The notes beneath the pieces are model-generated. The model had not been told where the DNA came from. It saw nothing but the letters and a program-made list of their open reading frames with translations, and made no database searches. Positions 8,463-63,130 of a DNA stretch of 64,000 nucleotides are shown here, piece after piece (the first letter of the stretch is position 1; each line of letters opens with the position of its first letter). Where the stretch lies: the IMG/VR virus record IMGVR_UViG_3300044971_004534. One strand, 5' to 3'. The DNA comes from a virus. A program made the translations under genes and the position numbers.

Positions 8463-8754
8463 AGAAAAGGAAAAGCGTCTCCGAGCAATCCGGGAAGTCT
8501 ACGAGAGGGCGCGTGATGATTGGGAGCGTGAAGGCGGCTTTGAAGGAAGGCGTGGCTGGACTCACAGAGCACGCAGTTGCTATGAACACGCAAAGGCGCG
8601 TTATGAATGGGCTCTCAAGGGGTATTTTCATTGGGAGCCAGGTTACGGCTTGATGACAGAAGAACAGCGTCAAGAGAACGAAACCCGTCAAGAGAAGTGG
8701 ATGCAGAATTTTTTTGCAGAAGTAGACGAGTGGAAGAAGACGCGGGGCTTCTAA
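8449..8754 (+). CDS. hypothetical protein
   Basis: ATG 8449 in frame of ORF-track 8290..8754; 14-nt overlap with previous gene. Confidence 0.55.
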   Translation: MLSPEEKEKRLRAIREVYERARDDWEREGGFEGRRGWTHRARSCYEHAKARYEWALKGYFHWEPGYGLMTEEQRQENETRQEKWMQNFFAEVDEWKKTRGF

Positions 8755-8975
8755 AACTCCAATTCGCTCCTCCATAAGCAAAATCCACTTCATAAGAAAA
8801 TTCGGGGCAAGGAAAGTACACATCAACACTACTTATAGTATTTTTTCATTTACAATCCACTACCTATTGGTATTGCGTCTAAAATGCTACTTCTTTCCTT
8901 CCTTTTTTACACCCCAGTCTTTAAGCTTAAAAAGCTGCAAAATTATTCTTAAAACTTAAAAACCTTTCTCCTTGT

Positions 8976-9281
8976 ATGTCGTGTATGATGGAATACGTGG
9001 ACACAGACCGCCTGACTCCCCTACAGGTGGAGGCGATGAAGAGCGAGATGCTGTCTCTTGTGCATGATATCAGTCACGGAGGGTGGGTAAGCGTACAGTT
9101 GTTGTGGAGTGCGTGTGACACTTCCCTTTCCCCCAAGCAGCAGCAGTATTTCTACAAGGTGATGTACGAGTTGTTTGACGAGGGAAAGATCGAAAGCAGG
9201 AAGTCCACCAATCCCAAGGAGTGGGACATCAGGATCTGCCCCTTGTACTCCCTCCTCCTCTCTTCAAAAACACGTTCTTAA
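8976..9281 (+). CDS. hypothetical protein (possible wHTH)
   Basis: ORF track; stop lies in repeated TTCTTAAGAAAATTCGGG element. Confidence 0.55.
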   Translation: MSCMMEYVDTDRLTPLQVEAMKSEMLSLVHDISHGGWVSVQLLWSACDTSLSPKQQQYFYKVMYELFDEGKIESRKSTNPKEWDIRICPLYSLLLSSKTRS

Positions 9282-9300
9282 GAAAATTCGGGCAAACAAG

Positions 9301-9603
9301 ATGACCACCAATACTACCACGCAGAAACTACTAGAAGACCTGAAAAGCCCTGAACGGAATGTCCGCATGGATGCAGCAAGGAATCCCAATGCCACTCCCG
9401 AAGTACTTCTTATTGCGATGAAAGACGAGTATCAGTATGTCCGCCAAGTAGCAGCAGCCAATTCCAATGCCACTCCCCAAGTGCTTCTTATTGCCCTGAA
9501 AGACGAGGATTATTTTGTCCGCAGAGCAGCAAAATGGGCAATAGAAGAAAATCCCTTCTTAGCACTCCAAATCGCTGCTCTCCAAGGAAAAGCCTCTTCT
9601 TAA
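9301..9603 (+). CDS. HEAT / leucine-rich-repeat-variant (LRV) repeat protein
   Basis: Repeats VRMDAARNPNATPEVLLIAMKDE / VRQVAAANSNATPQVLLIALKDE / VRRAAKWAI; ATG 9301 in frame of ORF-track 9175..9603. Confidence 0.7.
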   Translation: MTTNTTTQKLLEDLKSPERNVRMDAARNPNATPEVLLIAMKDEYQYVRQVAAANSNATPQVLLIALKDEDYFVRRAAKWAIEENPFLALQIAALQGKASS

Positions 9604-9697
9604 GAAAATTCGGGGGAAAGGTATATCACTTCAAAAAAACAGAATATGACCAAAATTTCACCCCTCTTTCCCTCCCTTCCCATCCCGATAAAGCCGT

Positions 9698-10327
9698 ATG
9701 GCAGAAAAGGAAGAAGTACAAGACAGCTTGTTCTCCCATGTAACCCTTTGGGAAGAACTGAGAGCGTGTAGCAAATGCTCCTCCATGCACCCTCTTTCCC
9801 ACTACAAGTGCATAGATAAAAGGGATAAGAAAGGATACTACCTACGAGGGAAGTGCCGTTTGTGCAAAAAGATTGAGTTTGACCAAAAATACGAACGCAA
9901 GTTGGCAGCAAACTTGTTCCCAGACAAAAGGGAATGCATCGTATGCAAGAAGGAAAAGCACCGCAACCAGTTCAATGTTCACAAGAAAGCAAAGAGCGGA
10001 CTGTACGGTGTATGCAAATCATGTTATGTAAAAAAGAATTACTTTTTCCGCCACTCCCAATCCAATCCCACTCAAGAAGATTTTGAGCGCTATTGCAAAG
10101 CCACTTGCTGCGAATGCTGTGGAGAGCCATTCCAAAAACAGGGGAAAAGAAAAAAGTGTCAAGACCATGACCACGACACAAATGCACTCAGAGGCATCAT
10201 TTGCCAGCAATGCAACTGGGGTGAAGGCTTACTGAAGCATGGTTCAAAATGCATTTCTGAACATTCCCGTTCGTGTGTCTTGAAGTACATGGAGAAGTGG
10301 GGAATCACCCCCAAAGATCCCGCATGA
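9698..10327 (+). CDS. recombination endonuclease VII / HNH-type nuclease
   Basis: CQDHDHDTNALRGIICQQCNWGEG matches the Endo VII DHDH-x-TG-x2-RG-x-LC-x2-CN signature; several CxxC pairs upstream. Confidence 0.75.
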   Translation: MAEKEEVQDSLFSHVTLWEELRACSKCSSMHPLSHYKCIDKRDKKGYYLRGKCRLCKKIEFDQKYERKLAANLFPDKRECIVCKKEKHRNQFNVHKKAKSGLYGVCKSCYVKKNYFFRHSQSNPTQEDFERYCKATCCECCGEPFQKQGKRKKCQDHDHDTNALRGIICQQCNWGEGLLKHGSKCISEHSRSCVLKYMEKWGITPKDPA

Positions 10328-18603: not shown

Positions 18604-18882
18604 ATGAATAACGAAACAAGTTTGGTAAACAACAAGCCCACATTCAAGCCGCTTCCCATGTACAAGGTGATTGTTCACAACGATGATGTGAACACCTACA
18701 ATCACGTTATTGGGACTTTCATGGAAATCATCAAAATGGACAAGCAGACCGCCCTCCTCAAGACTGTTGAAGTCGATAAGGAAGGGATGTCCGTGGTGTC
18801 CGTGACGCACAAGGAACACGCTGAACTGTTACAGGATCAGTTGAAGTCCAAGGCTCTCACGGTCACTATTGAGCCGGATTGA
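18604..18882 (+). CDS. clpS: ClpS, ATP-dependent Clp protease adaptor
   Basis: PMYKVIVHNDDVNTYNHVIGTFMEI...AELLQDQL is the ClpS core; ATG 18604 6 nt after GGAGGA (ORF track lists TTG 18598). Confidence 0.85.
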   Translation: MNNETSLVNNKPTFKPLPMYKVIVHNDDVNTYNHVIGTFMEIIKMDKQTALLKTVEVDKEGMSVVSVTHKEHAELLQDQLKSKALTVTIEPD

Positions 18883-19062: not shown

Positions 19063-20085
19063 ATGAATCTCGTTGAGAAGATCAAGCGCAACCGCAAGAC
19101 GGGTGTTCCCACCTTCATCTTTGGTGCGCCCGGTGTTGGCAAGTCGCAGATGGTTCATCAGGCAGCGGACGGGGACACCGTGATTGATGTCCGTCTGTCC
19201 ATGCTTGATCCGGTTGACCTGCGTGGTCTGCCGACCGTCAAGCAGAACGGCGATGGTGAGTCCGTGGTTGAGTGGGCGCGTCCTGAGTTCATCCCGGCTG
19301 AAGGCAAGGGCATCATCTTCTTTGATGAGTTGAACACCGCCCCCGCTGCCGTGCAGAACGCTGCGCTTCAGATCATCCTTGATCGCAAGTGTGGTCCGCA
19401 TAAGTTGGGCGATGGTTGGTACATCGTGGCTGCGGGAAACAAGGCTTCCCACAAGGCTCATGTCAACCCGCTCTCCGCACCGCTCCGCAACCGCTTTGCC
19501 GTGGTTGAGTACGAGCCGTCCGTTGAGGCTTGGTCTGCGTGGGCGATGGGTGCGGGAGTTCACGACCATGTGATCGGCTTCCTCAACTTCCGCCCCGGTC
19601 TGCTCACGACCGATCCGAAGGACGAGTACGCCAACTTTGCCTCCCCCCGTTCGTGGGATCGCGTGTCGAAGTTCCTTCAGGCGGGTCTTGACGAGCAGGA
19701 GGACATGGAGCCTCTTGTCGGCAAGGGTGCTGCTGCGGAGTTCACGGCGTATCGGACGGAGATTCGGGATATGCCCGACATTGACGCTCTGATTGCGAAG
19801 AAGGCTGAGTTCAAGGAGAACCCCAAGAAGATCAGCATTTCCTACGCTGTGGCGATGGCTCTCGCTTCCCGCCTGTCCCGTGGTGACAAGAAGTTCGTGA
19901 CCACGAACGCGGATCGGTGCTGTGAGATCGTGTCTGCCCTGTCCCCGGAGATCGCGTGTCTGTTCTTTGTCCGTACTCTCACCTCCGATCCTCATGTCAA
20001 GACCGCTGTGTGTGAGAGCAAGTCTGCTCACAAGTGGGTGCTGACCCATGAGAAGTTGCTGACGAAGTACGGGATCAAGAAGTAA
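19063..20085 (+). CDS. MoxR/CbbQ-like AAA+ ATPase (AAA_5)
   Basis: Walker A GAPGVGKS, Walker B IIFFDELN, TAPAAVQNAALQIILDRK sensor region. Confidence 0.9.
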   Translation: MNLVEKIKRNRKTGVPTFIFGAPGVGKSQMVHQAADGDTVIDVRLSMLDPVDLRGLPTVKQNGDGESVVEWARPEFIPAEGKGIIFFDELNTAPAAVQNAALQIILDRKCGPHKLGDGWYIVAAGNKASHKAHVNPLSAPLRNRFAVVEYEPSVEAWSAWAMGAGVHDHVIGFLNFRPGLLTTDPKDEYANFASPRSWDRVSKFLQAGLDEQEDMEPLVGKGAAAEFTAYRTEIRDMPDIDALIAKKAEFKENPKKISISYAVAMALASRLSRGDKKFVTTNADRCCEIVSALSPEIACLFFVRTLTSDPHVKTAVCESKSAHKWVLTHEKLLTKYGIKK

Positions 20086-20132
20086 TCCCCCCGCAGGAGT
20101 GGGGGGAGGGCGGCAACGCTCTCCCCCTCTCC

Positions 20133-20166
20133 CTCTTTTTCCCCCTTCCCCGAAGGACTTGGGACA
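20133..20166 (+). promoter_or_regulatory. conserved intergenic cassette copy 3 (leaderless class)
   Basis: core 20133-20145; TTG +14..16; ATG 20166 at +21. Confidence 0.55.
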
Positions 20167-21416
20167 TGGCAAAGAAGAAGAACAACTCCACCGCAACCGC
20201 CGCTCCTGCTGCCGACAACGCTCAGGATGTCGGACTCACGCCTTCTGAACTCAACGAACTCCGTGAGCGCATGAAGGGCATCGTGTTCCGTATGTACCGC
20301 TTCTTTCCCTTTTGGGGACTGCTTGCGGAGAACTGCAAGGTGTCGATCAAGTCCGACAAGGATGTTCCGACCGCCTGTGTTGACCGATACGGCAACATCA
20401 GTTTCGGAGCAAAGTTCTTCAAGGACTTGACCGAAGATCAGGCGTTGTTCGTCCTCGCGCATGAGATCGGTCACGCTGCGTTCAGTCACATTGATCGCCG
20501 TCAGAGCCGTGATCCGCTGCTTTGGAATGTTGCGATTGACTACGCCATCAACCTCCTCCTGTCGGACAACTTCAACGATTCCAAGTATCTGCCGAAGGGT
20601 GTCCTGCTTGACAAGAAGTACGCGGGGATGTCCGCTGAGGAGATTTACGAAGATGTCATCCGCAACGCCAAGACCGTGAAGGTCTACACGCTTTCGGGCG
20701 ATGTTGACTACAGCGACAAGGGCGAGGATGGCGATGGCGATGGCGATGGCATCGTGATCCGTGATCGCCGTGCCGAAAAGAAGGGCAACGAGCAGGGTTG
20801 GGATCAGGCAATCGCCTTGAGCCATGCCCGTGCAAAGATGCAGGGCGATATGCCTGAGTCTCTTGATCGTGCCGTGTCGGAGAAGTTGGGCAGCAAGATT
20901 GATTGGCGCGAAGCACTCAAGCAGTACCTCCGCTTTGGCGTGACTCGCATCCTGCGGGATCACTACACCTTCATGCCCCCGAACCGCCGCTTTGTCCATC
21001 AGGGTCTTTACTTGCCGTCCATGTACGGCAACGATGCCCCGAAGATCGGCTTTGCCGTGGACACCTCCGGTTCGATTGGTGAGTCAGAGATGGCTCAGGC
21101 AATCGCTGAGATTGATGAGATTCGCCGTCAGTTCAACTGCCCTCTTTACCTTGTGGAGTGTGATGCGGAAGTCCATGACGGGCGTTGGATCAGTCCCGAT
21201 CAGTCCTGCCCAACGGCGTTCAAGGGCGGCGGCGGAACCGATTTCCGTCCCGTGTTTGACCACCTCAAGGAGCAGAAAGTCCCCGTGGACATTATGGTGT
21301 ACCTCACCGATGGCTACGGCGAGTTTGGAGATCAGCCCGAAGTCGATGTCCTTTGGGTCACGACCACGAATGTCAAGCCGCCTTATGGCGACCACATTCA
21401 AGTGGGTGTGGGCTAA
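20166..21416 (+). CDS. VWA-domain protein with N-terminal zincin-like domain (MoxR partner, DUF2201-like)
   Basis: HEIGHAAFSH (HExxH) and MIDAS DTSGSIG; immediately downstream of the MoxR ATPase. Confidence 0.85.
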   Translation: MAKKKNNSTATAAPAADNAQDVGLTPSELNELRERMKGIVFRMYRFFPFWGLLAENCKVSIKSDKDVPTACVDRYGNISFGAKFFKDLTEDQALFVLAHEIGHAAFSHIDRRQSRDPLLWNVAIDYAINLLLSDNFNDSKYLPKGVLLDKKYAGMSAEEIYEDVIRNAKTVKVYTLSGDVDYSDKGEDGDGDGDGIVIRDRRAEKKGNEQGWDQAIALSHARAKMQGDMPESLDRAVSEKLGSKIDWREALKQYLRFGVTRILRDHYTFMPPNRRFVHQGLYLPSMYGNDAPKIGFAVDTSGSIGESEMAQAIAEIDEIRRQFNCPLYLVECDAEVHDGRWISPDQSCPTAFKGGGGTDFRPVFDHLKEQKVPVDIMVYLTDGYGEFGDQPEVDVLWVTTTNVKPPYGDHIQVGVG

Positions 21417-23538: not shown

Positions 23539-23567
23539 TTGACACTCCATTGAACCAACGCTATACT
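23539..23567 (+). promoter_or_regulatory. sigma70-type promoter TTGACA-N17-TATACT
   Basis: TTGACA 23539-23544, TATACT 23562-23567; AAAGGAG before ATG 23619. Confidence 0.6.
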
Positions 23568-23618: not shown

Positions 23619-23909
23619 ATGAGTCACATTTCTGTTCGCAGTTCGTCTATTCGTCTGACTGAAGAAAATGCAACACCTCGTCAGAGGCTTCATGGATGGG
23701 TGTTCCCTCCAAGTCCTGTCACGCAGGGAGTTCTTGTGGGCATGAACGATGCTCTTGCTGAGGAGATCATCGGCATGATCCGTGACTGCTGCTCTGATGA
23801 CAATGGCAACATGATTCTTGATGGATCAAATGCCGATCTGCTGACTTTTGCTAGCCGTCTTGAGCAGAACATTGCTCAGAAGGCGATGCGGAAAACAGAT
23901 CGTGAGTAA
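23619..23909 (+). CDS. hypothetical protein
   Basis: ORF track; SD AAAGGAG 7 nt upstream. Confidence 0.6.
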   Translation: MSHISVRSSSIRLTEENATPRQRLHGWVFPPSPVTQGVLVGMNDALAEEIIGMIRDCCSDDNGNMILDGSNADLLTFASRLEQNIAQKAMRKTDRE

Positions 23910-23947
23910 AGGACTTTTCCCAGTTCCATAGAAATATGGGCTGTGAA

Positions 23948-24302
23948 GGGGCTGAACTGGTTTCGATTGCTGAAGGACTATTCGATACTGCACGACGAGG
24001 CTGATGGGCAACTCGTAAAAAGCCGATCAAACAACAACCGCCAACGAATCGTTGATGGCTGTCGCTGCTTGATGCAGCAAAGTTCTTAGAAGTTGGACAC
24101 TTGCTTCTAAGAACTGTCTGAAGTGTCGATCAGCGTACTGCGAAGTTCCAACGCATAAGGCGCTGAAGTTAATATTATATGATTTGGAACTTTCAAAGGA
24201 CTCATGGTACGAGGACTCCTTTGATCGACGGACTCGTACCTAGCGTGGAGAAGGTGCGATAGGACTTTTGCCAACACAGGGGTTCGACTCCCCTCGGCTC
24301 CA
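23948..24302 (+). ncRNA. ssrA: tmRNA (SsrA), tag ADQTTTANESLMAVAA
   Basis: 5' GGGGCTGAACTGGTTTCGA; 3' T-arm GGGGTTCGACTCCCC plus acceptor CGGCTCC-A pairing with the 5' end incl. G3:U; tag ORF GCC 24022 to TGA 24072 after an A-rich tract; no encoded CCA. Confidence 0.8.
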
Positions 24303-24311
24303 TTCAGCAAG

Positions 24312-24345
24312 CCCTCGTTCAGAGAAATCTGGGCGAGGGATTTTC
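24312..24345 (+). terminator. rho-independent terminator after tmRNA
   Basis: CCCTCG ... CGAGGG stem followed by ATTTT. Confidence 0.5.
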
Positions 24346-25889: not shown

Positions 25890-25923
25890 CTCTTTTTCCC
25901 CCACGATGGGGAAGGTTGTGGCA
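25890..25923 (+). promoter_or_regulatory. conserved intergenic cassette copy 6
   Basis: core 25890-25902; TTG +14..16; A 25923 at +21; 13-nt leader with AAGGA to ATG 25936. Confidence 0.55.
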
Positions 25924-25935
25924 GCAAGGACGATC

Positions 25936-26853
25936 ATGCCCATCCGACACCTCGGTTATGCCTGTCAGAATATGACCCTCGGGGAGACTAAGCCAGTCTC
26001 CAAGCGTGTCTTTACGGACAGAACGCTTCGGATGGACGGGTTTAGTCTGCGGCGAGTAAATGAACTTGCCCTGTCGAACTCCCGTGATCTGCTCAAGATC
26101 ATGTGGTGGAATGTTGAAAATAAAATCAACTTCTTCCGCATTGGTTCAGGGATGTTTCCGTTCATGGATCATCCCGAACTGAAGTACGGTCTTGATGACC
26201 TCGCTACTGCGTTCACGATCAAGGGCGTGTTTCAGAATGTCGGCAACCTTGCCCGTGAGCATGGTATCCGGCTGTCAATGCACCCCGGTCCATACACCTG
26301 TCTTGCATCCCCTGATGAGGCAGTTGTCGCTAAGTCCTTGCTGTGCGTGGAGATGCACTCAATGGTTGGCGATCTTCTTGGAATGGATGACTTCCCAATC
26401 AACATCCACATTGGTGGTGTGTATGACGGCAAGGAAGGGTGTGCAGAGCGGTTTGTCCACAACTTCTCCCGACTTTCTCCACGCGCTCAATCAAGGCTGA
26501 CGCTTGAAAACGATGACAAGGAGGGAATGTGGACGATTCGTGACCTTCTTCCGGTGCATGAAAAGACAGGTATTCCACTTGTTCTTGACATTCATCACCA
26601 CTCGCTCAACACAGGTGGAGATGAACTGACAGCCGTAGCAGACATCGCTCTTTCCACTTGGAACGGAAAAACTCCAAAAGTTCATTATAGTGAACCTAAA
26701 GAGGGTTGCCGTCCCCAAGCACATTCCGACTACATCGTGAATGAGATTCCCGAACTTTGTCCAGTCAGACAATACGATGTGATGATTGAGGCAAAGGCAA
26801 AGGAACTCGCTCTCCTCAAATACAGAAACCTCTTTTTCCCCCTCTCTCGGTGA
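25936..26853 (+). CDS. uvdE: UV damage endonuclease UvdE
   Basis: RHLGYACQN..., FFRIGSGMFPF, RLSMHPGPY, HIGGVY, RLTLENDD, LVLDIHHH, VMIEAKAKE are the UvdE TIM-barrel signature; start set by cassette geometry and SD. Confidence 0.9.
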   Translation: MPIRHLGYACQNMTLGETKPVSKRVFTDRTLRMDGFSLRRVNELALSNSRDLLKIMWWNVENKINFFRIGSGMFPFMDHPELKYGLDDLATAFTIKGVFQNVGNLAREHGIRLSMHPGPYTCLASPDEAVVAKSLLCVEMHSMVGDLLGMDDFPINIHIGGVYDGKEGCAERFVHNFSRLSPRAQSRLTLENDDKEGMWTIRDLLPVHEKTGIPLVLDIHHHSLNTGGDELTAVADIALSTWNGKTPKVHYSEPKEGCRPQAHSDYIVNEIPELCPVRQYDVMIEAKAKELALLKYRNLFFPLSR

Positions 26854-26863
26854 ACTTACGATA
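26830..26863 (+). promoter_or_regulatory. conserved intergenic cassette copy 7 (leaderless class)
   Basis: core 26830-26842 inside the uvdE 3' end; TTA +14..16; ATG 26863 at +21. Confidence 0.55.
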
Positions 26864-27975
26864 TGCCCGCACGCATCTACGACAATCTCTCTGTTGATTC
26901 GGTCAGCGTCAGCAACTCTCACTCTGCTGCCCTTATTGGTGACAGCATCCTTGGGTGGGGTAGCCGCGCCAAGAGCAAGTTGGACTTCCCGGTTGGCAAG
27001 TTCGTGAGCGCAGCCTGTGGCTTCTCTCACTCTGCCGCCGTTGACTCCAACGGCAGTCTTTTCACCATTGGCAACGCGCTTGGTGGCAAGTTGAACAGCG
27101 GCAATCTGAACAGTCGTGGCAAGTTCAAGACCGTTCGCTGCTCTCGCAACTACACCGCTGCGACCATTGAGTACGGTGACGGAAAGCATCGGATTGCCGT
27201 GTTTGGCGATCAGAAGCCGTACAGCGTTCTCCCGTCCACGATTTACTCCAAGACGGCTAAGGATGAAGGTGTGTTCACCTTTGACTCCAACATCGGAGAC
27301 TTTGACATTGATGACAACGGGACTCTCGTTGTTGATGATCTCAAGGGTTCGATCTCCGTCATTCGTGGCAGCATTTGCAGCCTGAGCGGACTTCCCGGTA
27401 AAGTTACCAAGGTTCGTTGCGGCGACCCCAACACCACGACCATTGCAATCGCCCATGTGAATGACAGGGCATATCTGCTCACCCGCACCCACACGGGAAC
27501 TCAGCAGATTGCGGAGATTGCGGGTGATGTCACCGATGTGATCTGTGCAAACAAGTTCTATGGATATGTTGTTTCCAAGCGTGAACTCGTTGTCGTTGGA
27601 GAGCATTTCGGAAACATTCGCCTTCCCGATGGTTGGTCGATTGAGAGCGCCGATGGCGGCAATAATGGTTATGCAATCTGTGTGAGCGACAATGAAGGCA
27701 GTCGCCATCTTGTCCTTGTTGGAGACAACACCAAGAACAAGGAACTTGTGATCGAAGGTCACGATCATCGTGAATGCCCCCGCAAGGACGGCATGATCTA
27801 TGAGATTCGTGAGGACAAGACCGCCAAGGCGAAGCCGATTGTCGTTGCCGCTGTCAGCGCGATCACCGATGATTGCGATGATTCCGACTACGAGTGTGAG
27901 CCGTGCAAGTTCCGCTTTGTCGCAAAGTCCCCTGTTTGCCCGATGTGTAAGGGCGAGGTGGCGGTCAATGTTTGA
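26863..27975 (+). CDS. RCC1-like beta-propeller repeat protein with C-terminal Zn-ribbon
   Basis: HSAALIGDSILGWGS, SHSAAVDSNGSLFTIGN repeats; C-terminal CEPC...CPMC; repeat assignment is weak. Confidence 0.55.
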   Translation: MPARIYDNLSVDSVSVSNSHSAALIGDSILGWGSRAKSKLDFPVGKFVSAACGFSHSAAVDSNGSLFTIGNALGGKLNSGNLNSRGKFKTVRCSRNYTAATIEYGDGKHRIAVFGDQKPYSVLPSTIYSKTAKDEGVFTFDSNIGDFDIDDNGTLVVDDLKGSISVIRGSICSLSGLPGKVTKVRCGDPNTTTIAIAHVNDRAYLLTRTHTGTQQIAEIAGDVTDVICANKFYGYVVSKRELVVVGEHFGNIRLPDGWSIESADGGNNGYAICVSDNEGSRHLVLVGDNTKNKELVIEGHDHRECPRKDGMIYEIREDKTAKAKPIVVAAVSAITDDCDDSDYECEPCKFRFVAKSPVCPMCKGEVAVNV

Positions 27976-29034: not shown

Positions 29035-29068
29035 CTCGTTTTCCCCCTCTAGCCGTGGGTTTGAGGTA
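29035..29068 (+). promoter_or_regulatory. conserved intergenic cassette copy 9 (leaderless class)
   Basis: core 29035-29047; TTG +14..16; ATG 29068 at +21. Confidence 0.55.
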
Positions 29069-30270
29069 TGAGCATCAAGGTCGATTCTTTCTTCAGCGGA
29101 CACAGCGCCGCCGCATTCACCCTGAGTGATGGCAGCATTCGCATGGTCGGAGAAGCGGGTCGTGAGGGAGCCTTTGGCTTCTACTCCAAGGGGTGTCACT
29201 CGTACACGAAGATTTCTCCCAACGGAGTGATTGTCGGCAGCATCAGCAACAAGTATTTCCACGCTCCTCCTCAGCACATCGGTCACATCGTGAAGTGCGT
29301 GACCATGTGGGGAATGACTTTCGCCATTGATAACACGGGCAGACTGTACGCTTGGGGTACATTCAAGAAGCGTCAATGGGACTCTATCCCATTTGACCGT
29401 ACTTTCAAGAACATCATGTGCGTTGGATGGGGGACCATTCTCTTTACTCAAACGGATGGAACGAGCGTTCCCATGTTCTTGCGTGAAGAAGGTCCGTCAA
29501 CGACCATGTTCTTCCAACACGCTAAGTCATTTCCTGCAATCAAGTCTGCTGCGATTGCGCGAGACAGCGGGTACATGATGGGTGAAGATGGCAGTCTCCT
29601 TTACTATTGGGACAAGAACGGTTCAGATAGCGACAAGAGTTGTGACTGGAAGTGCAAGACCGTAAGTGATTGCATTTGGGCTTCATTCAGCGATGGAAGC
29701 CTGATCTATAGGGACGGAAGGGGTGTGCATATTGCCATGAGGGGCAACAACAAGTGGAGTACCTCCATGAGTATCGCTGCCGTTGAGGACAAGGAAAGCC
29801 CTATTCATCGTGCAGTTGCATCAGCGGATCATTTCACTAACGACAATCAGGCATTCTTGCTTGACGATAACTCCATTCTGCGTTGCATCAACGGCAGATT
29901 CCGTGGAGACAAGTGCGAAGGCAGCATCACTCCTGTGTTTGAGGATGGAGTGAAGCAGTTTGACTGCAACTTTGTCCTTACGAACAAAGGTGTAATCATC
30001 CCGATTTCTGATGAGGCTTGGAGTCGTACTGACATGGTTCTGTCAGCCTTTGACGAATGGGCTGATGACGAGGACATCGTGTACGGAATGTGCAAGATTG
30101 CCCCTCGCAACTTCCTGTGTGCCTCTAATCGTCTACGCAAGGATGTTGACTTCTGCAAGAAGATTGCACAACTTGGACCCCATGCGTATCAGTACATTGA
30201 TGGCATGGTCAGAAGGAATCGTGAACTGCGTCCATACAAGCATATGTATGCGATGGCAGGAGATCGGTAG
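29068..30270 (+). CDS. RCC1-like beta-propeller repeat protein
   Basis: GHSAAAFTLSDGSIRMVGE, TFAIDNTGRLYAWGTF repeats; weak. Confidence 0.55.
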   Translation: MSIKVDSFFSGHSAAAFTLSDGSIRMVGEAGREGAFGFYSKGCHSYTKISPNGVIVGSISNKYFHAPPQHIGHIVKCVTMWGMTFAIDNTGRLYAWGTFKKRQWDSIPFDRTFKNIMCVGWGTILFTQTDGTSVPMFLREEGPSTTMFFQHAKSFPAIKSAAIARDSGYMMGEDGSLLYYWDKNGSDSDKSCDWKCKTVSDCIWASFSDGSLIYRDGRGVHIAMRGNNKWSTSMSIAAVEDKESPIHRAVASADHFTNDNQAFLLDDNSILRCINGRFRGDKCEGSITPVFEDGVKQFDCNFVLTNKGVIIPISDEAWSRTDMVLSAFDEWADDEDIVYGMCKIAPRNFLCASNRLRKDVDFCKKIAQLGPHAYQYIDGMVRRNRELRPYKHMYAMAGDR

Positions 30271-50492: not shown

Positions 50493-50662
50493 TTATATTG
50501 TTCTGGTTGAAAAAACATCGACCTGTTGAGATGCCCCTAAAAAAATTTTTGGCGCGTTAATACTGGGTTACTGATGGAGGGGGCGGAAATTTTTATAATC
50601 ATCATAAGACCAAAAGGGAAAGACTATTAATCAAAGCAATATAATAAATAGGGAGACTCAAT

Positions 50663-51181
50663 ATGCAATACAAACTATCTAAAGAACAGTGGTTGGAGAT
50701 CGGGCAAAAGGCTGGTTGGTTCAAAATTGCACAGCAAGAAGAGAAAGGACGTGCATTCTTCGTCACTGCTTCAGAAGAAGAAATAAAAAAATATATAGAC
50801 AGCATAGAAGAGTCGTCTGCGCAGGATCTTGCCGACAACCTTGCGGGCGAAAGAGACATGATGAGGGAGAGTGCAAATGGGGCTCGTAGGGCTGCGATGT
50901 CAGCTGATGCAGGCGGAGACGCTGATGACTACAGATTCCAGCTCAAGTTAGAAAAGCAAAAAATTGAAGTTGCAGACAAGTTTGCAAAAGCACTGGCAAT
51001 GCTTACGGTAAGATTTCCGAATGTAAAAACTCCAGAACCAGCCAAGCTCATGGACATGGCAGATTCAATGGAGACACTTTCTCAAAAAGAACATGAGCAA
51101 TCCCGAAGCCAAAGCACCTTACAGGGAGATGCAGAAAAAAGACTGAGACTACCTGGCCTGGGAGCAAACACCCCAAGATAA
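50663..51181 (+). CDS. QYKLSK-domain protein (module 2, gene A)
   Basis: MQYKLSKEQWLEIGQKAGWFKIAQQ; GGGAG SD. Confidence 0.65.
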   Translation: MQYKLSKEQWLEIGQKAGWFKIAQQEEKGRAFFVTASEEEIKKYIDSIEESSAQDLADNLAGERDMMRESANGARRAAMSADAGGDADDYRFQLKLEKQKIEVADKFAKALAMLTVRFPNVKTPEPAKLMDMADSMETLSQKEHEQSRSQSTLQGDAEKRLRLPGLGANTPR

Positions 51182-51199
51182 AAATTATAAGGAAAACAC

Positions 51200-51514
51200 A
51201 TGAACTGGTACAAAAGCGCAAGAAAAAGATACGGATCATTCCATTATGACTTTGACGGAATAGAGCTTATTAATCCCATTTGCTTTTGCTCTGGAACTGC
51301 AAATGTGGAATTTTCAATAGAAAGAGATCCAGGTGACAGATATGAGCCTCCGACCACAGATGTTGATCTCAATGTGACAGTTGAGTCACTTTACTGCACA
51401 GACGCAGAGGGTGAAGAAATTCCAGTCACGAATGAAATGGTTAGGGAGGTTGAGGCCATACTCAGAGATGAAGAACATTTGCGAGAAAAAGCCTTTGACC
51501 ACGAATTTGATTAA
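51200..51514 (+). CDS. NWYK N-terminus protein (module 2, gene B)
   Basis: MNWYKSARKRYG start; ORF track. Confidence 0.6.
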   Translation: MNWYKSARKRYGSFHYDFDGIELINPICFCSGTANVEFSIERDPGDRYEPPTTDVDLNVTVESLYCTDAEGEEIPVTNEMVREVEAILRDEEHLREKAFDHEFD

Positions 51515-51601
51515 TTTGAAATAATTTTTAAAAATTACAGAACATTTTAAATTCATAATCGTACAAATGATGACATCATTTATCACAGGAGATTATGTCC
51601 A

Positions 51602-53059
51602 ATGAAAATACTACTCGCAATTTTAGTAAGTGCTCTTATCGTAAACGGTTCTGAATTTAAGAAAAATACAACAAACAAGAACGTCGTAACCGCCACGGAA
51701 ACCCAGGTGAATACGGCGTTTGTCGGTTTTAATGACGGCGTTTCTCTGGAGGACAAACAGAGGACTATTGCATCTCTTGGGAACATGATTGAGTCTGCAC
51801 ATTATTATGAAAATATCCCCAATTTGGCACTTGTCGTTGTTTCGAGTAACTTTATAACTAACATAGCAGACGTGTCAAGTGCACTTGAAGGAAATGAGAC
51901 TGTTTCATTCTTTGAAATGGACAGAAGATTTACCGCAACATACAGCGAAGTGATTCCAAACGATGCCGGATTCTCACAATGCTGGGGTCACAGAAATACC
52001 GGAGCTTCTGGTGGACTGGTAAACTTTGATATGAATACAACAAATGCATGGTCTATTACTCAAGGACAGCCAACGGTAAAAATACTTGTCTTTGAGACAG
52101 GAATACAGCAAGATCATCCAGATATAAATCAACTGCCAGGAAGAGACTTCACAACAGGTGCAGTGAACGGAGTAAGCGGCGGTGGACCAAGCAACTCTTG
52201 TGACAATCACGGGACTGCCGTTGCAGGATGCATTACAGGCATTATCAACAATTCAATAGGAACCGTGGGAACTGCACCAAATTGCAAAGTCATTTCCGCA
52301 AAAGTTGGCACAGCAATCACTCCATGCAATGGGTCGTGGCAGGGGCAAACATCATGGACTGTAAATGCTATTAACTGGGCAATCGGCAATGGAGTAAGGG
52401 TAACAAACAACAGCAATGATTACGGCACAGCTTCTACGGCAATGTCAAATGCATATTCTGCCGCAAAAAATGCTGGAATAGTTAATTTTGCAAGTTCTGG
52501 AAATTCTGGAAACACTTCTATTGGTTTCCCAGCAAGTGCTTCTGCGGTGAACGCAGTTGGTGCAAGCAGCAGAAACGGACAGAAAGCTTCTTTTTCGTCA
52601 TACGGCACAAAGCTCGCTTTTGTTGCTGCTGGCCAATCGGTTTACACCACAGACAGGACGGGATCAAATGGATACTCTTCAGGTGACTATTCACTTATTG
52701 ACGGAACTTCTTTTTCTTCCCCATATGCCGCTGGTGTCGCAGCACTTATCATTTCAGTGAACCCATCACTTTCTGCAGCACAGGTTGAGTCCATTATGCA
52801 AACAACATGCAAGGACATGGGAGCAGTAGGATTTGACACTCTTACTGGATGGGGAATGCTGAATGCAGAAGCTGCCGTGCTTCTTGCTCGCCCTGTTCCA
52901 TGCCCAGCAGATTTAAATGGAGACAGGTCTGTCAATGGAAGCGATCTTGGTCAATTGTTGTCTTCATGGGGTTCATCTGGATCTGACCTTACTGGAGATT
53001 CAGTCGTCAATGGCGAAGATTTAGGCGTTCTTCTTTCTGCATGGGGGCCTTGTCCGTAA
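51602..53059 (+). CDS. secreted subtilisin-like (S8) serine protease with C-terminal dockerin-like repeats
   Basis: Signal peptide MKILLAILVSALIVNG; catalytic D (VFETGIQQDHPD), H (NHGTAVAG), S (GTSFSSPYAAG); tail DLNGDRSVNGSDLGQLLSSWG / DLTGDSVVNGEDLGVLLSAWG. Confidence 0.9.
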   Translation: MKILLAILVSALIVNGSEFKKNTTNKNVVTATETQVNTAFVGFNDGVSLEDKQRTIASLGNMIESAHYYENIPNLALVVVSSNFITNIADVSSALEGNETVSFFEMDRRFTATYSEVIPNDAGFSQCWGHRNTGASGGLVNFDMNTTNAWSITQGQPTVKILVFETGIQQDHPDINQLPGRDFTTGAVNGVSGGGPSNSCDNHGTAVAGCITGIINNSIGTVGTAPNCKVISAKVGTAITPCNGSWQGQTSWTVNAINWAIGNGVRVTNNSNDYGTASTAMSNAYSAAKNAGIVNFASSGNSGNTSIGFPASASAVNAVGASSRNGQKASFSSYGTKLAFVAAGQSVYTTDRTGSNGYSSGDYSLIDGTSFSSPYAAGVAALIISVNPSLSAAQVESIMQTTCKDMGAVGFDTLTGWGMLNAEAAVLLARPVPCPADLNGDRSVNGSDLGQLLSSWGSSGSDLTGDSVVNGEDLGVLLSAWGPCP

Positions 53060-53068
53060 GGTTGCTGT

Positions 53069-53587
53069 ATGAAAGAACATCCGTATACTCCATTTGATGA
53101 TTTTTTTGCAGAGTTTAGATGGTATCAGAAAAGAGGGATAGCTCCTGATATATCAAAAAGTCAGCTTAAAAAAATATGGAATGAATCTCCTGTAGTATTG
53201 CTTGAACCAAAGAATTTTGATTCATTCAGAAACTTCTCTCCATATCGTGAAAAGCTGAATGGCACAATGGAGAACAGAATAAGAAAACTGCTTGAGATAT
53301 CTGCAACGGAAGATAGAGATGAAGTGTTTGACACCAAGTGGGAATTGAAAAGAAAAAAGAATCCACAAAAATACATTATCAATTTAGCTCAACTTGTGTG
53401 GAACAAAGATGGATACGATCCAGTAAATGTAGTGGACATAAATGGTAAAAGACAATTTATCACAGGTGGCAGAACTCGTGCAGCAATCGGAAAAGCACTG
53501 GGAGTTCCCGTGCTGACTCGCATTGTTTGCCTGGAACATAAGGGAAAATGGTCTAAGCGAGCTCGTGAGCTTATGAATGGAAAATGA
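53069..53587 (+). CDS. hypothetical protein, possible ParB/Srx-like nuclease fold
   Basis: VVDINGKRQFITGGRTRAAIGKALGVPVL resembles the ParB N-terminal GxRRxxAA..LG box; weak. Confidence 0.45.
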   Translation: MKEHPYTPFDDFFAEFRWYQKRGIAPDISKSQLKKIWNESPVVLLEPKNFDSFRNFSPYREKLNGTMENRIRKLLEISATEDRDEVFDTKWELKRKKNPQKYIINLAQLVWNKDGYDPVNVVDINGKRQFITGGRTRAAIGKALGVPVLTRIVCLEHKGKWSKRARELMNGK

Positions 53588-53640
53588 CGCGTTGCAGGTA
53601 ATCATCTGTTAGCGTTGAATATATTTCAATGGAGAATTAT

Positions 53641-54096
53641 ATGCAATATAAATTATCAAAGTCAGAGTGGGAATCTATAGGCGTCAATGCTGGGTGGATG
53701 AAAATTGCTGGACCTGGCGGAAGATTTCAGGCTTCCATGAGTGCAGCAGAGCAAAAGTTGTGGGCAAGCCTAAATCAGCAACAAAAAAATAATTATGCAA
53801 CATTGGATGCTGCCAATAGAGCAAGGGTTGCAGCACTGCCATTGCAGCAAGCACAACAATACCTGAACAGCATAATGCCACCAGCTGGAGGTAAAGTCCC
53901 AACAGCTTCATTTGATAATGAAATAAAGACGGCTCTTAAATTAAATGACAAAACTGATGAAAAAACACCAGAGCAGTATAAGGAAGAGTTTATAGAAAGA
54001 ATGAAGTCCATCGGGATGACAGATGAAGAAATCGAGCGTGCACTAAAATCTGGATATTTAGAAAGAATCATGAAAGGCAGAAAGAATAAAGAATGA
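53641..54096 (+). CDS. QYKLSK-domain protein (module 3, gene A)
   Basis: MQYKLSKSEWESIGVNAGWMKIAG; ATG 53641 6 nt after GGAG (ORF track lists 53629). Confidence 0.65.
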   Translation: MQYKLSKSEWESIGVNAGWMKIAGPGGRFQASMSAAEQKLWASLNQQQKNNYATLDAANRARVAALPLQQAQQYLNSIMPPAGGKVPTASFDNEIKTALKLNDKTDEKTPEQYKEEFIERMKSIGMTDEEIERALKSGYLERIMKGRKNKE

Positions 54097-54860
54097 ACTG
54101 GTATAAGCTGGCTCAAAATAGGTCTTTTTCTTGGGCCAATGTAGAGGGTATTTTATACACACCAGAGGCCATGAGAGACTTGAAAGATTTTAAGAAGTCT
54201 CAGGAAGGAAGAAGTGCTAAGGAAATTAGCATGCTTATTAAAGACGTTATTGATAGAAGACAAATTAATTTACGGAATGTAGAATCCAGGTCTGCTGCAA
54301 ATCCTTACATTCCAAACGGACCAAAAGAAAAAATAAAGATTCACGTATTTGAGCCAAGAGGTGTTGGACTCGCTGAAGGTCCCGGAAAGGCTTACAGAAT
54401 AGGAGCACAACTATGTTCTTTAGGAGGAGAAACTTCAGAATCATCAGACAAATACATTCGAGAGCAAGAATTTGAAAGAACTGGACGTAAATTTTTAATT
54501 ATCAAGAGAGTATTTGAAAATCATGATGAAGATTATTTGCCATGGATTAGTCTATATAATTCTTCTCACGTAGATGATTGTCCAAAATACACATTTCAAA
54601 TTCAAAGAAAAGAAAACCAAGAAAAAATAGTAGATCTCAATCCTCAAAACCCTTTTGACTGGTTAGTAAATTCTGTAAAGATGATACGCGATAGAAATAT
54701 TGAAGGCATCAGCATTCATAAAAGAATGCTTGAAGGAAAATCAGAAGAAGAAATTTTTAGTATTTTAGAATTTATGACAAAAAATCAGGCTAGATTCCCA
54801 TCTAATATATTAAAAGATATAGGCAGGTGGATCGAGGAATACGTGGACAGAACAGGGTAA
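54093..54860 (+). CDS. NWYK N-terminus protein (module 3, gene B)
   Basis: MNWYKLAQNRSF start; ATGA overlap. Confidence 0.6.
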   Translation: MNWYKLAQNRSFSWANVEGILYTPEAMRDLKDFKKSQEGRSAKEISMLIKDVIDRRQINLRNVESRSAANPYIPNGPKEKIKIHVFEPRGVGLAEGPGKAYRIGAQLCSLGGETSESSDKYIREQEFERTGRKFLIIKRVFENHDEDYLPWISLYNSSHVDDCPKYTFQIQRKENQEKIVDLNPQNPFDWLVNSVKMIRDRNIEGISIHKRMLEGKSEEEIFSILEFMTKNQARFPSNILKDIGRWIEEYVDRTG

Positions 54861-54880
54861 TACATCTTTGGAAAACACAC

Positions 54881-55336
54881 ATGAACTATTCTGAATTTTA
54901 TGGAACTGGAGATGACGCAAAAAGGCTTAAGCTTATTCTTATGTCTTACGATGAAGAGTATGCACGTCAAATGAAAACATATCCAGAGCAAAAAAATGCT
55001 TTAACAACTCAGTTTAAGTCATATTCAAATCTAGTTATTAATCAACTTAATAGCTACACAGAATCAGGAGAAAGCGCTCCAAGTGGAGTCAGAATGCTTG
55101 GAATTGTTTTCAAAAAGAATTTAAATGTTGCCGCTAAGTACGAGCTTATTAATCCTGTAGAATTTTCTACATATACTGACGCAGCAAAATCTTTCTATGT
55201 CAGTCAAAACTTAGACGTAAGTGAATACTTTGATAATTCAGAAAATTCAACAGAACTGTTTAATAGAATTAATACTAGTCAGGATAATCCTACAGGTATA
55301 ACATACTTAGATTCATCAGGTTCATTAGTGAGGTAA
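54881..55336 (+). CDS. hypothetical protein
   Basis: ATG 54881 in frame of ORF-track 54827..55336. Confidence 0.55.
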   Translation: MNYSEFYGTGDDAKRLKLILMSYDEEYARQMKTYPEQKNALTTQFKSYSNLVINQLNSYTESGESAPSGVRMLGIVFKKNLNVAAKYELINPVEFSTYTDAAKSFYVSQNLDVSEYFDNSENSTELFNRINTSQDNPTGITYLDSSGSLVR

Positions 55337-55341
55337 TAAAG

Positions 55342-55620
55342 ATGTCTTTTAGAGAAAAAATCGGATTTGAAAAACAAGGCGACCAATGGGTTCGCACCCA
55401 GGCAGCGCTAAACGCTGCTGCTCCTAAAGCTATAAGTAGAATTGAAAAACTTATATATTCTGCTGATACTGCTGCAGGTATTGGAGACATGAACGGAGCT
55501 GCGTTTCATGCGAATTGGGCCAGAATTGTCATACAGAGTGCACTAGACAATGGTTTTATTACTCAAAATCAGCACTCAACATACATGTCTCAAATTAACG
55601 CTATTTCTCCGCCAGAATAA
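55342..55620 (+). CDS. hypothetical protein
   Basis: ORF track; SD GTGAGG. Confidence 0.55.
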   Translation: MSFREKIGFEKQGDQWVRTQAALNAAAPKAISRIEKLIYSADTAAGIGDMNGAAFHANWARIVIQSALDNGFITQNQHSTYMSQINAISPPE

Positions 55621-55639
55621 TAGAGATATTAGATACAAC

Positions 55640-55663
55640 AAAGGGGAGCTTTTGGCTCCCCTT
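55640..55663. terminator. bidirectional rho-independent terminator
   Basis: AAAGGGGAGC-tttt-GCTCCCCTTT between convergent genes. Confidence 0.8.
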
Positions 55664-55689
55664 TGTTGTATTATAAAATGTAAAAATAA

Positions 55690-56328
55690 TTATTTACGCT
55701 TACGTTGACTAAAGCTGCAAAGACCTGCAATACCAATAAGAGATACTGCTCCTGGTGCAGGAATTGCGTTTACTCCAAAGCCACAGTAGTCAATAAAGTT
55801 TCCCTGAGTAGATCCGCCTGTGGCGCTAACTGCCTGAAATGCGAATCTTGTCAGATTTCCTATACTAACTATAGATCCTGAATGAAATTGCCAAGCAGTT
55901 TCATCTGCAGTAAAGTTGCCCTGATACAGAACAGTGTCATCTCCGTTGCCATACAGCTGATCTGCGCCAAGATCAATTATTGAAAGCTGCATGACATCAA
56001 CTCCGTATCTGCCTCTGTGAGCAAAATGCCAATTAATTGTATTGAAATCTCCTAAGCCATTGACGTGCTGATACAAAGTAGAATCGTAGTTTGCATTGAG
56101 TTCAGCGAATGAACTTCCCTCATATGCAGGCACTCCAAGAAATCCATCTGACCAAATCTCCAAATTGTTGTCTGGTGCTGTGGTTGCCCAGTTCAAAGTT
56201 GGGTCAGAACCAGAAAAGAAACCATAACCCCAGGTCTGAAAATCTTCAAAACCACCGTTTACAAGATCTGCCATACAACTTGTAGAAATAACTAAAGTAG
56301 ACAAAAATGCACAAGCGTATTTAACCAT
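55690..56328 (-). CDS. secreted PEP-CTERM protein with DUF642-like domain
   Basis: Signal peptide, then DLVNGGFE; C-terminus IPAPGAVSLIGIAGLCSFSQRKRK (PEP-CTERM variant: PxPG, helix, basic cluster); SD AAGGAGGG. Confidence 0.75.
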   Translation of the reverse strand: MVKYACAFLSTLVISTSCMADLVNGGFEDFQTWGYGFFSGSDPTLNWATTAPDNNLEIWSDGFLGVPAYEGSSFAELNANYDSTLYQHVNGLGDFNTINWHFAHRGRYGVDVMQLSIIDLGADQLYGNGDDTVLYQGNFTADETAWQFHSGSIVSIGNLTRFAFQAVSATGGSTQGNFIDYCGFGVNAIPAPGAVSLIGIAGLCSFSQRKRK

Positions 56329-56369
56329 TTAATAAACCCTCCTTATTAAAATTGGTAATGGTGTAAAAA

Positions 56370-57164
56370 TTATATTCTTTTACGATTATGAAAAAATTGA
56401 CTAAAAGCAACTACAGTAAAAGCTCCAGGTGATGGAACGGACGGTGGCACATAGTATCCACCAGTGTCTATACCATAGTACTCTCCAAATCCATAGTTAG
56501 TTCCAAGAGCAAGTGTAGTGCTATAGACATCAAATGGCAGCAAACTAGGAGTAAAAAAGGCTGCGTATGGATCTGCAAATCCTGTTTGAGCTGCCAAAGA
56601 GGTAACCGGGGCTAAATTAATATCTGTCGCCAAAGCTGCCTGCACAATTTGCTTTGTCAATTTATTTTGCTCATTAGTAACAACAAGTGGAGCTTCAACT
56701 GGCTTATCTCCACCAATTTTATTTTCTTTGGGAAATCTAGCAAGTTCATCTGAGATCTGATAGCCACGAGTCTGTTCTTTGTTGTCAATTTTGAATGGTT
56801 TCTGCCAGTGCCCTTGATAAGGTTGGCCAAACAAAGCGGAATTTGACTGCTTATTACTATTATTGTCTTTTTGTTCTTGATTTTTTGGAGCGTCTGCTTT
56901 CCCAATATCAGAAGCTGCAGTTATGGCAGAATTCATGCCATTAATCGCTGACATAAGAGACTGTACTCCACGTTCACCAAGCAATGTGATTGCAGAAGTA
57001 CATACGATGGTCATAACGTAAACTTTTTTCTCTAAGCTTTTAACCTTAGATTTTGCTTCTTCACACATTCTGGCACATGAAGAGCATCCCCCAGAAATGC
57101 TCTCAACATGCGAGTGTGAAACTGGCGTAGGCGCAGGCTGCTGAATGTCTTTTTTAATCCCCAT
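56370..57164 (-). CDS. PEP-CTERM-like membrane/secreted protein
   Basis: C-terminus VPSPGAFTVVAFSQFFHNRKRI; internal helix VYVMTIVCTSAITLL. Confidence 0.55.
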   Translation of the reverse strand: MGIKKDIQQPAPTPVSHSHVESISGGCSSCARMCEEAKSKVKSLEKKVYVMTIVCTSAITLLGERGVQSLMSAINGMNSAITAASDIGKADAPKNQEQKDNNSNKQSNSALFGQPYQGHWQKPFKIDNKEQTRGYQISDELARFPKENKIGGDKPVEAPLVVTNEQNKLTKQIVQAALATDINLAPVTSLAAQTGFADPYAAFFTPSLLPFDVYSTTLALGTNYGFGEYYGIDTGGYYVPPSVPSPGAFTVVAFSQFFHNRKRI

Positions 57165-57304
57165 TTGTACCCCCCGATACTTTGAAGTTGCGAATATACT
57201 TAATTTAAAAATACGATATATTATTTCATTTTCCTTTTGTAATAAGCACTCATCTTATTTGATAATAGTCAGAAAGGTAATGGATTTATTTTTAGTAATA
57301 TTTT

Positions 57305-63000: not shown

Positions 63001-63086
63001 TAGAAGAGCCATTTAAATCAATACTTCAAAGATTGCTTATACAGAAATTTAATTACGACATGGATTTAGATGAAATGGTAGAGTGA
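59991..63086 (+). CDS. large hypothetical protein (1031 aa), paralog 2
   Basis: ATG 59991 (MGWYKFAQL) in frame of ORF-track 59958..63086; VTEIQSDVMQ, ENRF, NNWYRQIK motifs. Confidence 0.7.
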   Translation: MGWYKFAQLHAMKCSPVNLKKLLQFAHTPGQAYLFEMGEEHSAMQKHIERLGGKRYKIQFLLNTFDAMLTDLDNTKLDFEVDQDRIANRIDSDYVEESYGYIFDEDDTKFWENIDGINDQVLEFIEESWDVSEDDFESRLFHYPVSSREPNNSKELVSLKDISEELSSFAYFGDMISCIGNLKHDKYVARDIMREIADIDIDLRSMGESATGIHVHTWAKNKGIDLTLAVVQKAAGGEQNVEIAKYDPDSAKQIAQKAYSNVANSWVDSIEKLPHSKTDLEEAIEEAFRDQVKESWWESNKQRFMEDAVDNEIESTADSFNYDDRRWAKNTLPAESVDPNVRHHVSKTFTEALKEHSWLDRDEDSGHVQVEASSYFANLGVKDWSKIADDIQEMADDHAMTGYEDYVKEIRSYTSMINWIVASDPDLSAIFSDEDADPTTLTQTATDLGQIVKTSYEVISLMPQDDARRMEQSITAENPEIEDWIKALREREEVERQARETQAAMLAEEEARKAIQRSNRERIEKEVSEESKKINDPNIGSRSFTEEQKQQAKTQNIIGKPFEHMSTLRVDQKYPGVSAFVLKPVPMESEVPYKTFHIAIYPKKEQSDPTRLHDVFDRSAGLNFHGFSFPEHVNENYYDLIGWVGGTIDLYNKIMYVTEIQSDVMQNTPRMKDVSKSIVALNEGKNSLLAEAEKIKTYITTNDINAYYDKRIQDLKLKIQSMSDSPAAMQMQQAVLKLEELKNKGVDPFEKERQKLHDIDNKLKEINRQINDIEEFDKKPSAKLNKPHLSELRSRIENRFTDWVDTFYNEIFMYCSRLGIKHLYIAASSYLYLTWRQYAKASTLELYKKIYDTKAEKYGMRKVHYKGVTYWHLDLSENMPKFASKERLQMSKNNWYRQIKTAMDFSSIYIDDIKRKFSNGEITEEQMQAQIRERYMEHTQDPTTRDPKLFIIEAKTFFDTIKHIEGRERGGEDSEFSKAQFMREALGQFLEFNGKKYTDRDGKLEEPFKSILQRLLIQKFNYDMDLDEMVE

Positions 63087-63130
63087 TTTCTACGACAAAT
63101 AAGTAAAAGCTCTATCATAGGAGAACTTAC

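Follow-up and report, generated by a model that had tools for sequence, protein, structure and literature searches.

Does the DNA of a very large, uncultured phage-like element carry a transfer-messenger RNA (tmRNA) gene of its own, or does the tmRNA gene seen there belong to a host chromosome beside which the element has inserted? The question is raised by a stretch of 64,000 nucleotides listed as viral in IMG/VR (IMGVR_UViG_3300044971_004534; hereafter the window), in which an original prediction had placed a tmRNA gene (ssrA) at positions 23948-24302 on the basis of the sequence alone. The prediction had named ARAGORN and the Rfam covariance model RF00023 as the checks on this claim, and both bear it out. 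ARAGORN called a tmRNA over exactly this span on the forward strand, with the tag peptide ANESLMAVAA, and RF00023 matched 23948-24305 over the whole length of the model (positions 1-374 of 374) with 85.9 bits (E = 6.6e-32), the gathering score of the family being 47. The call is far beyond chance. Together with the covariation described below, these results suggest that the gene, 355 nt long up to its discriminator A, very likely encodes a functional, canonical one-piece tmRNA of a very large phage-like genome (known from contigs of up to 406 kb), located inside a tRNA-rich region.

The anatomy of the gene can be followed from end to end. The 5' end (GGGGCTGAACTGGTTTCGA), the T-arm (GGGGTTCGACTCCCC), the CGGCTCC strand followed by the discriminator A, and the G3:U pair are all present in the sequence as had been claimed. 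The acceptor stem consists of seven base pairs, its 5' strand GGGGCTG (23948-23954, +) pairing with CGGCTCC at 24295-24301 (tmRNA positions 1-7 with 348-354); the T-arm (AGGGG-TTCGACT-CCCCT, tmRNA positions 331-347), the acceptor 3' strand and the discriminator A together occupy 24278-24302 (+). The G3:U pair of this stem is the identity pair for alanyl-tRNA synthetase (AlaRS). A long, interrupted helix 2 joins tmRNA positions 22-47 to 297-324, pseudoknot 1 lies at 23996-24028 (+; tmRNA positions 49-81; stems CGAG/CTCG and GATGGGC/GCCGATC), and helix 5 (tmRNA positions 117-131) holds the stop codon of the tag in its loop. The other pseudoknots form a block at 24081-24240 (+): pseudoknot 2 at 24081-24127 (tmRNA positions 134-180; stems AGTTCTTAGAAGT/GCTTCTAAGAACT and GACACTT/AAGTGTC), pseudoknot 3 at 24130-24193 (tmRNA positions 183-246; stems TCAGCGT/GCGCTGA and AAGTTCCAA/TTGGAACTT) and pseudoknot 4 at 24193-24240 (tmRNA positions 246-293; stems TCAAAGGA/TCCTTTGA and GGTACGAG/CTCGTACC). 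All four pseudoknots, whose presence had been left for checking, could thus be mapped, and the gene passes every structural test applied for the one-piece tmRNA family (RF00023).

The seven-pair acceptor stem with its G3:U pair, the T-arm, the long helix 2, pseudoknot 1, a spacer of about 11 nt, a GCN resume codon and pseudoknots 2-4 are shared with bacterial one-piece tmRNAs such as E. coli SsrA. What sets the window gene apart from them is its huge phage-like carrier, the lack of an encoded CCA and the absence of smpB nearby; in sequence, alignment with the bacterial and viral tmRNAs fetched for comparison is confined to the tRNA-like ends, at about 70% identity. The bases after the discriminator A are TTC, and CCA is encoded neither here nor in any of the seven neighbouring tRNA genes, so that it must be added after transcription. 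Many bacterial tRNA and tmRNA genes do not encode CCA, the end being supplied by the CCA-adding enzyme, and the missing triplet does not exclude the gene from the tmRNA family.

The tag reading frame extends from 24040 to 24072 (+; tmRNA positions 93-125). It opens with the resume codon GCC, encodes ANESLMAVAA and closes with TGA, and it is separated from pseudoknot 1 by an A-rich spacer of 11 nt (AAACAACAACC). The frame and the stop (24070-24072) are those originally predicted, but the start is not: it had been placed at GCC 24022, which gives an extended tag of 16 residues (ADQTTTANESLMAVAA). This longer tag was rejected. The triplet 24022-24024 falls in the 3' strand of pseudoknot 1 (GCCGATC, 24022-24028), and both ARAGORN and the Rfam consensus alignment put the resume codon at 24040. 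Furthermore, the spacer of L017, the nearest of the distinct related loci, contains one extra A, which throws the upstream GCC out of frame and keeps ANESLMAVAA exactly; since the insertion shifts the upstream GCC and leaves the short tag unchanged, the resume codon is GCC 24040. The tag has the usual shape, with a GCN resume codon, ten residues, a hydrophobic-Ala-Ala end and a stop at helix 5, and its AN- start resembles that of the E. coli tag, ANDENYALAA.

Is the gene a working one? One possibility is that it represents the decaying relic of a host ssrA, left by an imprecise excision and without function in the element, a scenario that could call on the occurrence of ssrA fragments in prophages (PMC9004378) and on the absence of the gene from some relatives of the element. 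A relic would lose its pairing and its tag frame. Both were followed in six syntenic tmRNAs from four lineages (the window, L009, L017, L161, L020 and L021), which differ considerably in sequence: identity is 57-64% between lineages, 85% between the window and L017 and 90% between L020 and L021, and the tmRNAs of the relatives score 79-99.5 bits on RF00023. In the six-sequence alignment, pairing is kept in 88.3% of cells, a share that falls to 36-43% once the 3' partners are displaced by 1-3 columns; this comparison favours the model over the slid controls because the model was built on the window sequence, itself in the alignment. Both sides have changed in 38 of the 99 pairs, against only 7-10 with slid partners, and none of 500 column shuffles equalled the observed pairing and both-side changes. 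Six sequences are few, yet the double changes are numerous and occur in every pseudoknot.

The distribution of these changes is informative. The acceptor stem (seven pairs, including G3:U) and the T-arm are invariant in all six sequences. Both stems of each of pseudoknots 2-4 were found in every lineage from differing sequences, the six helices being 83-100% paired with many pairs altered on both sides. Stem 2 of pseudoknot 1 shows compensatory changes in L020 (TTTAGTGGG/CTCACTAAA) and L021 (TTTGGTAGG/CCTATCAAA), and the pairing of stem 2 of pseudoknot 3 is preserved in the window (GAAGTTCCAA/TTGGAACTTT), L017 (AGCCTTAG/CTAAGGCT), L161 (ACCTTCACT/GGTGAAGGT) and L020 (ACCTCTC/GAGAGGT). The tags of the relatives read ANEPLMAVAA (L009), ANESLMAVAA (L017), ANELALAA (L161), ANSFRMAA (L020) and ANSFRLAA (L021); despite differing nucleotides, all begin with AN and end in a hydrophobic residue, AA and a stop. 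The comparison thus indicates that the structure of the tmRNA and its tag are maintained by selection in four diverged lineages, and the preservation of the pairing, the G3:U pair and the tag ends across them argues for a working tmRNA rather than a relic. The gene is full length, every one of the four pseudoknots as well as helix 2 shows extensive compensatory changes, and the four lineages share unbroken tag frames together with a conserved promoter and terminator; descent from a functionless host remnant therefore seems very improbable.

The gene also has a recognizable transcriptional setting. Upstream lies a sigma-70-like promoter sequence, TTGACA-17-TATACT (23539-23567, +), which agrees with the consensus at 11 of 12 positions and precedes both the tmRNA and a small gene, orf96. 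A TTGACA-N16-18-TAnnnT motif occurs 72-83 nt upstream of the orf96 homologue in L017, L161, L020, L021 and L158, and we infer that the window site functions as a promoter. A hairpin with a T-tract had been predicted at 24312-24345, and it proved to be an intrinsic terminator in form (+; hairpin to 24339), with a GC-rich stem of 12 pairs, a folding energy of -21.6 kcal/mol and a z-score of -4.4; every relative has a GC-rich hairpin and a T-run in its place, with a different stem sequence each time. Just 5' of the tmRNA, a leader hairpin (CCATA-GAAA-TATGG, 23926-23939, +) recurs in four of the five lineages from differing sequences (z-scores from -1.6 to -5.5) and is weak in L161; it could, as a guess, have a role in processing. 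Promoter, orf96, tmRNA and terminator look like one transcription unit.

The product of orf96 (96 amino acids; 23619-23909, +) is preceded by a strong ribosome-binding site, AAGGAG, and its frame stops 38 nt short of the tmRNA. It has no match in Pfam or PHROG. A search of 5.8 billion proteins recovered homologues in only nine clusters, whose alignment contains 27 invariant columns, and its AlphaFold model (predicted local distance difference test score, 70) found no better match in the PDB than one with E = 2.1 (Foldseek). In the window, L017, L161, L020 and L021, orf96 immediately precedes the tmRNA and is read in the same direction; it occurs without a tmRNA in L158-L160, which represent one lineage. 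As a consequence of this last lineage, a functional link between orf96 and the tmRNA is not established. The idea that orf96 encodes a hidden SmpB-like partner was rejected as unsupported, given the lack of any family or fold match and its occurrence without a tmRNA. A bolder proposal would see the promoter, orf96, hairpin, tmRNA and terminator as a phage-specific trans-translation module, with orf96 as partner or regulator, that together with ClpS re-routes host Clp proteolysis during infection; orf96 might then steer the tmRNA preferentially to host messages or take over some of what SmpB does. We consider this proposal improbable.

If the tmRNA functions, it would depend on its host. No SmpB gene was found by tblastn with the E. 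coli protein in about 105 kb around the tmRNA, in a search that took in the window, its flanks and the relatives; as a positive control, the query found smpB beside four bacterial tmRNAs. Since no SmpB was found and CCA is not encoded, host factors would be needed, and use of the host SmpB is presumed. Established tmRNA biology suggests how this could proceed. Transcription of the unit by host RNA polymerase would probably take place early in infection; the RNA would be freed by RNase P and 3' trimming, finished at its 3' end by the host CCA-adding enzyme and charged with alanine by host AlaRS via the G3:U pair. Host SmpB and EF-Tu would then carry the tmRNA to stalled ribosomes whose mRNA is broken or lacks a stop codon, where translation would restart at GCC 24040, append (A)ANESLMAVAA and terminate at UGA, allowing the ribosome to be recycled, and the hydrophobic-Ala-Ala C-terminus would send the tagged protein to host Clp-type or other proteases. 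The likely gain for the phage would be added ribosome-rescue capacity, where ribosomes may stall through bulk degradation of mRNA in infection or through host RNase defences that cut RNAs.

The neighbourhood of the tmRNA allows another view of what the RNA is for. Seven scattered tRNA genes were identified by ARAGORN and Rfam between 11527 and 30855 (+), three upstream of the tmRNA (Glu-UUC, Gly-UCC and Arg-UCU) and four downstream (Met-CAU, Leu-CAA, Leu-UAA and Lys-UUU), in agreement with the claim that tRNAs flank the gene on both sides. Most of them read A-ending codons, which would suit a role in supplementing codon reading where the genome is AT-rich. A gene for a ClpS-like adaptor of the Clp protease lies 5 kb upstream of the tmRNA (18604-18882, +; PF02617, E = 1.4e-18); the best solved structure for its product is chloroplast ClpS1 (7d34, E = 3e-5), and the gene is conserved in the relatives L007-L011. 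In E. coli, ClpS diverts ClpAP from ssrA-tagged substrates, and a functional link between ClpS and the tmRNA is therefore conceivable by analogy. The ClpS-like gene had no tblastn match in GenBank phages, which first suggested a novel phage gene; this was rejected since ClpS is known from several jumbo phages (PMC7824862, PMC6102473).

The main role of the tmRNA might accordingly be something other than bulk rescue: it could counter defences that cut tRNAs or mRNAs, or re-route proteolysis with ClpS and possibly orf96. Such a role is in line with the position of the tmRNA within a tRNA cluster, since the tRNAs of phages have been suggested to act against tRNA-targeting defences (PMC10264068), with the nearby ClpS gene, with the constant place and orientation of orf96 directly upstream of the tmRNA and with the variation of the tag bodies among lineages. 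Nevertheless, orf96 also occurs without the tmRNA and has no recognizable fold, and several unrelated genes separate ClpS from the tmRNA. Such a specialized role is therefore rather unlikely, if less so than the module described above, and a tmRNA that contributes to ribosome rescue is the preferred reading.

Whose gene is it, then? ssrA is a well-known integration site. The window could thus contain a host chromosomal ssrA amid the genes of a prophage or island that has inserted at this site or close to it, a situation also discussed in PMC9004378 and one that the original prediction had raised as its alternative. The resemblance lies in an ssrA sequence beside mobile-element genes, and a sharp drop in GC content at about 50.5 kb could be taken for a prophage border. 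Host ssrA attachment sites, however, leave a duplicated 3' fragment, an integrase and host chromosome on one side, and none of these was found in the window. The partial 3' duplicate that had been proposed as a diagnostic is absent from the window even when up to five mismatches are allowed, no integrase match appeared among the scanned open reading frames (ORFs; at least 300 amino acids), and neither smpB nor any other cellular gene was found near the tmRNA, on both sides of which lie ORFans and genes of phage families.

The GC drop does not lend itself to a chromosomal border either. It lies 26 kb from the tmRNA and recurs inside contigs of the element 113-280 kb long from three sources, and the low-GC side carries on with phage-type genes (an endolysin-like protein, ThyA, ribonucleotide reductase (RNR) and dUTPase); moreover, IMG/VR lists the relatives as viral. 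Integration of the element at a host ssrA is thus an explanation already largely refuted, and we regard it as the least probable of those considered. The block with the tmRNA and all the tRNAs (1-50500 in the window) is about 54 kb long within an AT-richer huge genome, with 47-60% GC and about 0.6 GC at third codon positions (GC3). Over 10 kb or more on either side, the DNA that flanks it (50500-64000 in the window; L037 and L035) has 32-46% GC and a GC3 of about 0.3. The junction is identical in the JGI, NCBI and Logan assemblies, and a chimera can therefore be dismissed.

Synteny, phage-type genes and IMG/VR relatives all support the claim that the tmRNA belongs to a large phage-like element. 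Proteins identical to ones encoded in the window recur in numerous independent assemblies (JGI, ENA, NCBI and Logan), and contigs of 113,393, 280,008, 281,172 and 406,003 bp carry the locus with the same gene order in the tmRNA region. The IMG/VR relatives encode ATPases 97%, 85% and 62% identical to that of the window. Phage-like genes of the window comprise a DnaB/KaiC-like ATPase, a MoxR/VWA pair, endonuclease VII, UvdE and a DNA polymerase exonuclease domain, beside DUF932, glycosyltransferase and metallophosphoesterase genes; most of its ORFs have no family match, and those with one suggest a large virulent phage. In a relative of 76% identity, the region downstream encodes an endolysin-like protein, thymidylate synthase, a sigma factor, an HNH endonuclease, an RNR large subunit and dUTPase, and this RNR subunit is nearest (47%) to the RNRs of "uncultured phage" records of 634 kb and 462 kb.

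Searches for closer kin brought up no near relative of the window in 50,697 GenBank phage records. The tmRNA had no blastn match there, and a megablast of 20 kb aligned no more than about 60 nt, inside the tRNA-Met gene. A scan of bacterial genomes for the 3' pattern GGGGTTCGAYTCCCCTCGGCTCCA was made with the host in mind. Among the matches listed, 105 of 123 were tRNA-Ala genes; the 3' half of the tRNA-Ala-like domain is identical to that of tRNA-Ala genes in many bacteria. The ten bacterial tmRNAs among the matches include none close to that of the window, and the pattern points to no particular host.

Several points weigh against reading the gene as the functional tmRNA of a phage. The gene is absent from L158-L160 and, within the range fetched, from L022 and L023, and its absence from some relatives makes it accessory and dispensable for the group. 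An SmpB gene could lie elsewhere in the genome, beyond the roughly 105 kb examined. Neither a capsid nor a portal nor a terminase gene appeared in these 105 kb, where the search for hallmark genes covered the window ORFs of at least 300 amino acids and two hops along IMG/VR contigs (the window plus about 40 kb of flanks or relatives), for a genome of at least 406 kb; what it brought up were genes for replication, nucleotide metabolism, lysis-like functions and homing endonucleases only. The word "phage" therefore rests on gene content and on the IMG/VR listing. A functional tmRNA could accordingly be borne by a giant plasmid or some other non-viral element; putative large plasmids that carry comparable translation genes are indeed on record (PMC7162821). 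Yet the relatives are viral in IMG/VR and PHROG matches are many, the gene content includes an endolysin-like protein, endonuclease VII, homing HNH genes, group I introns, RNR, ThyA, dUTPase and a sigma factor, and the RNR is nearest to those of the 634-kb and 462-kb uncultured phages. A giant plasmid-like carrier thus seems doubtful, with a probability well below that of a very large phage-like genome.

Other features of the region were recorded in passing. A MoxR-type AAA+ ATPase (phrog_1297) adjoins a DUF2201 protein with metallopeptidase-like and VWA-like domains at 19063-21416 (+), and is nearest (42%) to those of the S-TIM5 group of cyanophages. Proteins encoded at 26863-27975 and 29068-30270 (+) have N-termini with RCC1-like repeats, flank both tRNA-Leu genes and include one with DUF4116; UvdE (25906-26853) lies just upstream of the first. 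The low-GC part encodes a subtilisin-like S8 protease (51602-53059, +) and two long ORFs of 899 (57305-60004) and 1042 amino acids (59958-63086, both +) that have no significant match in Pfam or PHROG, the latter also lacking a tblastn match in GenBank phage records. In relatives, the tmRNA is followed after about 0.2-0.8 kb by group I introns (L017, 14078-14527; L020, 14720-15169; L021, 8359-8608), and in some variants an HNH gene separates ClpS from the ATPase (L008-L010, about 8586-9735). The window has neither an intron near the tmRNA nor an HNH gene at that place, and mobile introns and homing endonucleases are therefore polymorphic in the region.

Among known systems, huge phages encode tmRNAs and sometimes SmpB (PMC7162821), as the original prediction had correctly stated, and tmRNAs occur in 402 of 18,146 phage genomes, or about 2% (PMC9004378). 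The window resembles huge and jumbo phages with such genes in its complete tmRNA, large genome, many tRNAs and genes for translation and proteostasis (PMC7162821, PMC9004378); it differs in belonging to another lineage, in its tags and in the absence of SmpB from the part examined. The tmRNA of phage Melnitz is a two-piece, riboswitch-linked molecule (PMC9004378), in contrast to the one-piece tmRNA of the window. Further tmRNAs were seen in IMG/VR contigs: those of L002 (2077-2425), L006 (2610-2957), L004 and L005 are permuted two-piece tmRNAs inside tRNA clusters and share a 19-nt 5' end identical to that of the window tmRNA, and L003, from a 194-kb contig, has a one-piece tmRNA amid 15 tRNAs. 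ARAGORN misses the tmRNAs of L161 (4319-4681) and L021 (7810-8152), which score about 83.5 bits each with Rfam, and phage surveys that use ARAGORN only will therefore undercount them.

The window tmRNA is a further example of the known phage tmRNAs and not a new kind, and it leaves what is known of tmRNA itself unchanged. It adds a well-supported lineage to these phage genes, and stands out by the quality of the comparative evidence and by its defined operon. The covariation across four lineages shows that the tmRNA of an uncultured huge phage-like element has been kept by selection and is no captured relic. With a defined transcription unit, five natural tag variants and relatives that naturally lack the gene, the group may provide a test system for what a phage gains from a ribosome-rescue RNA of its own.

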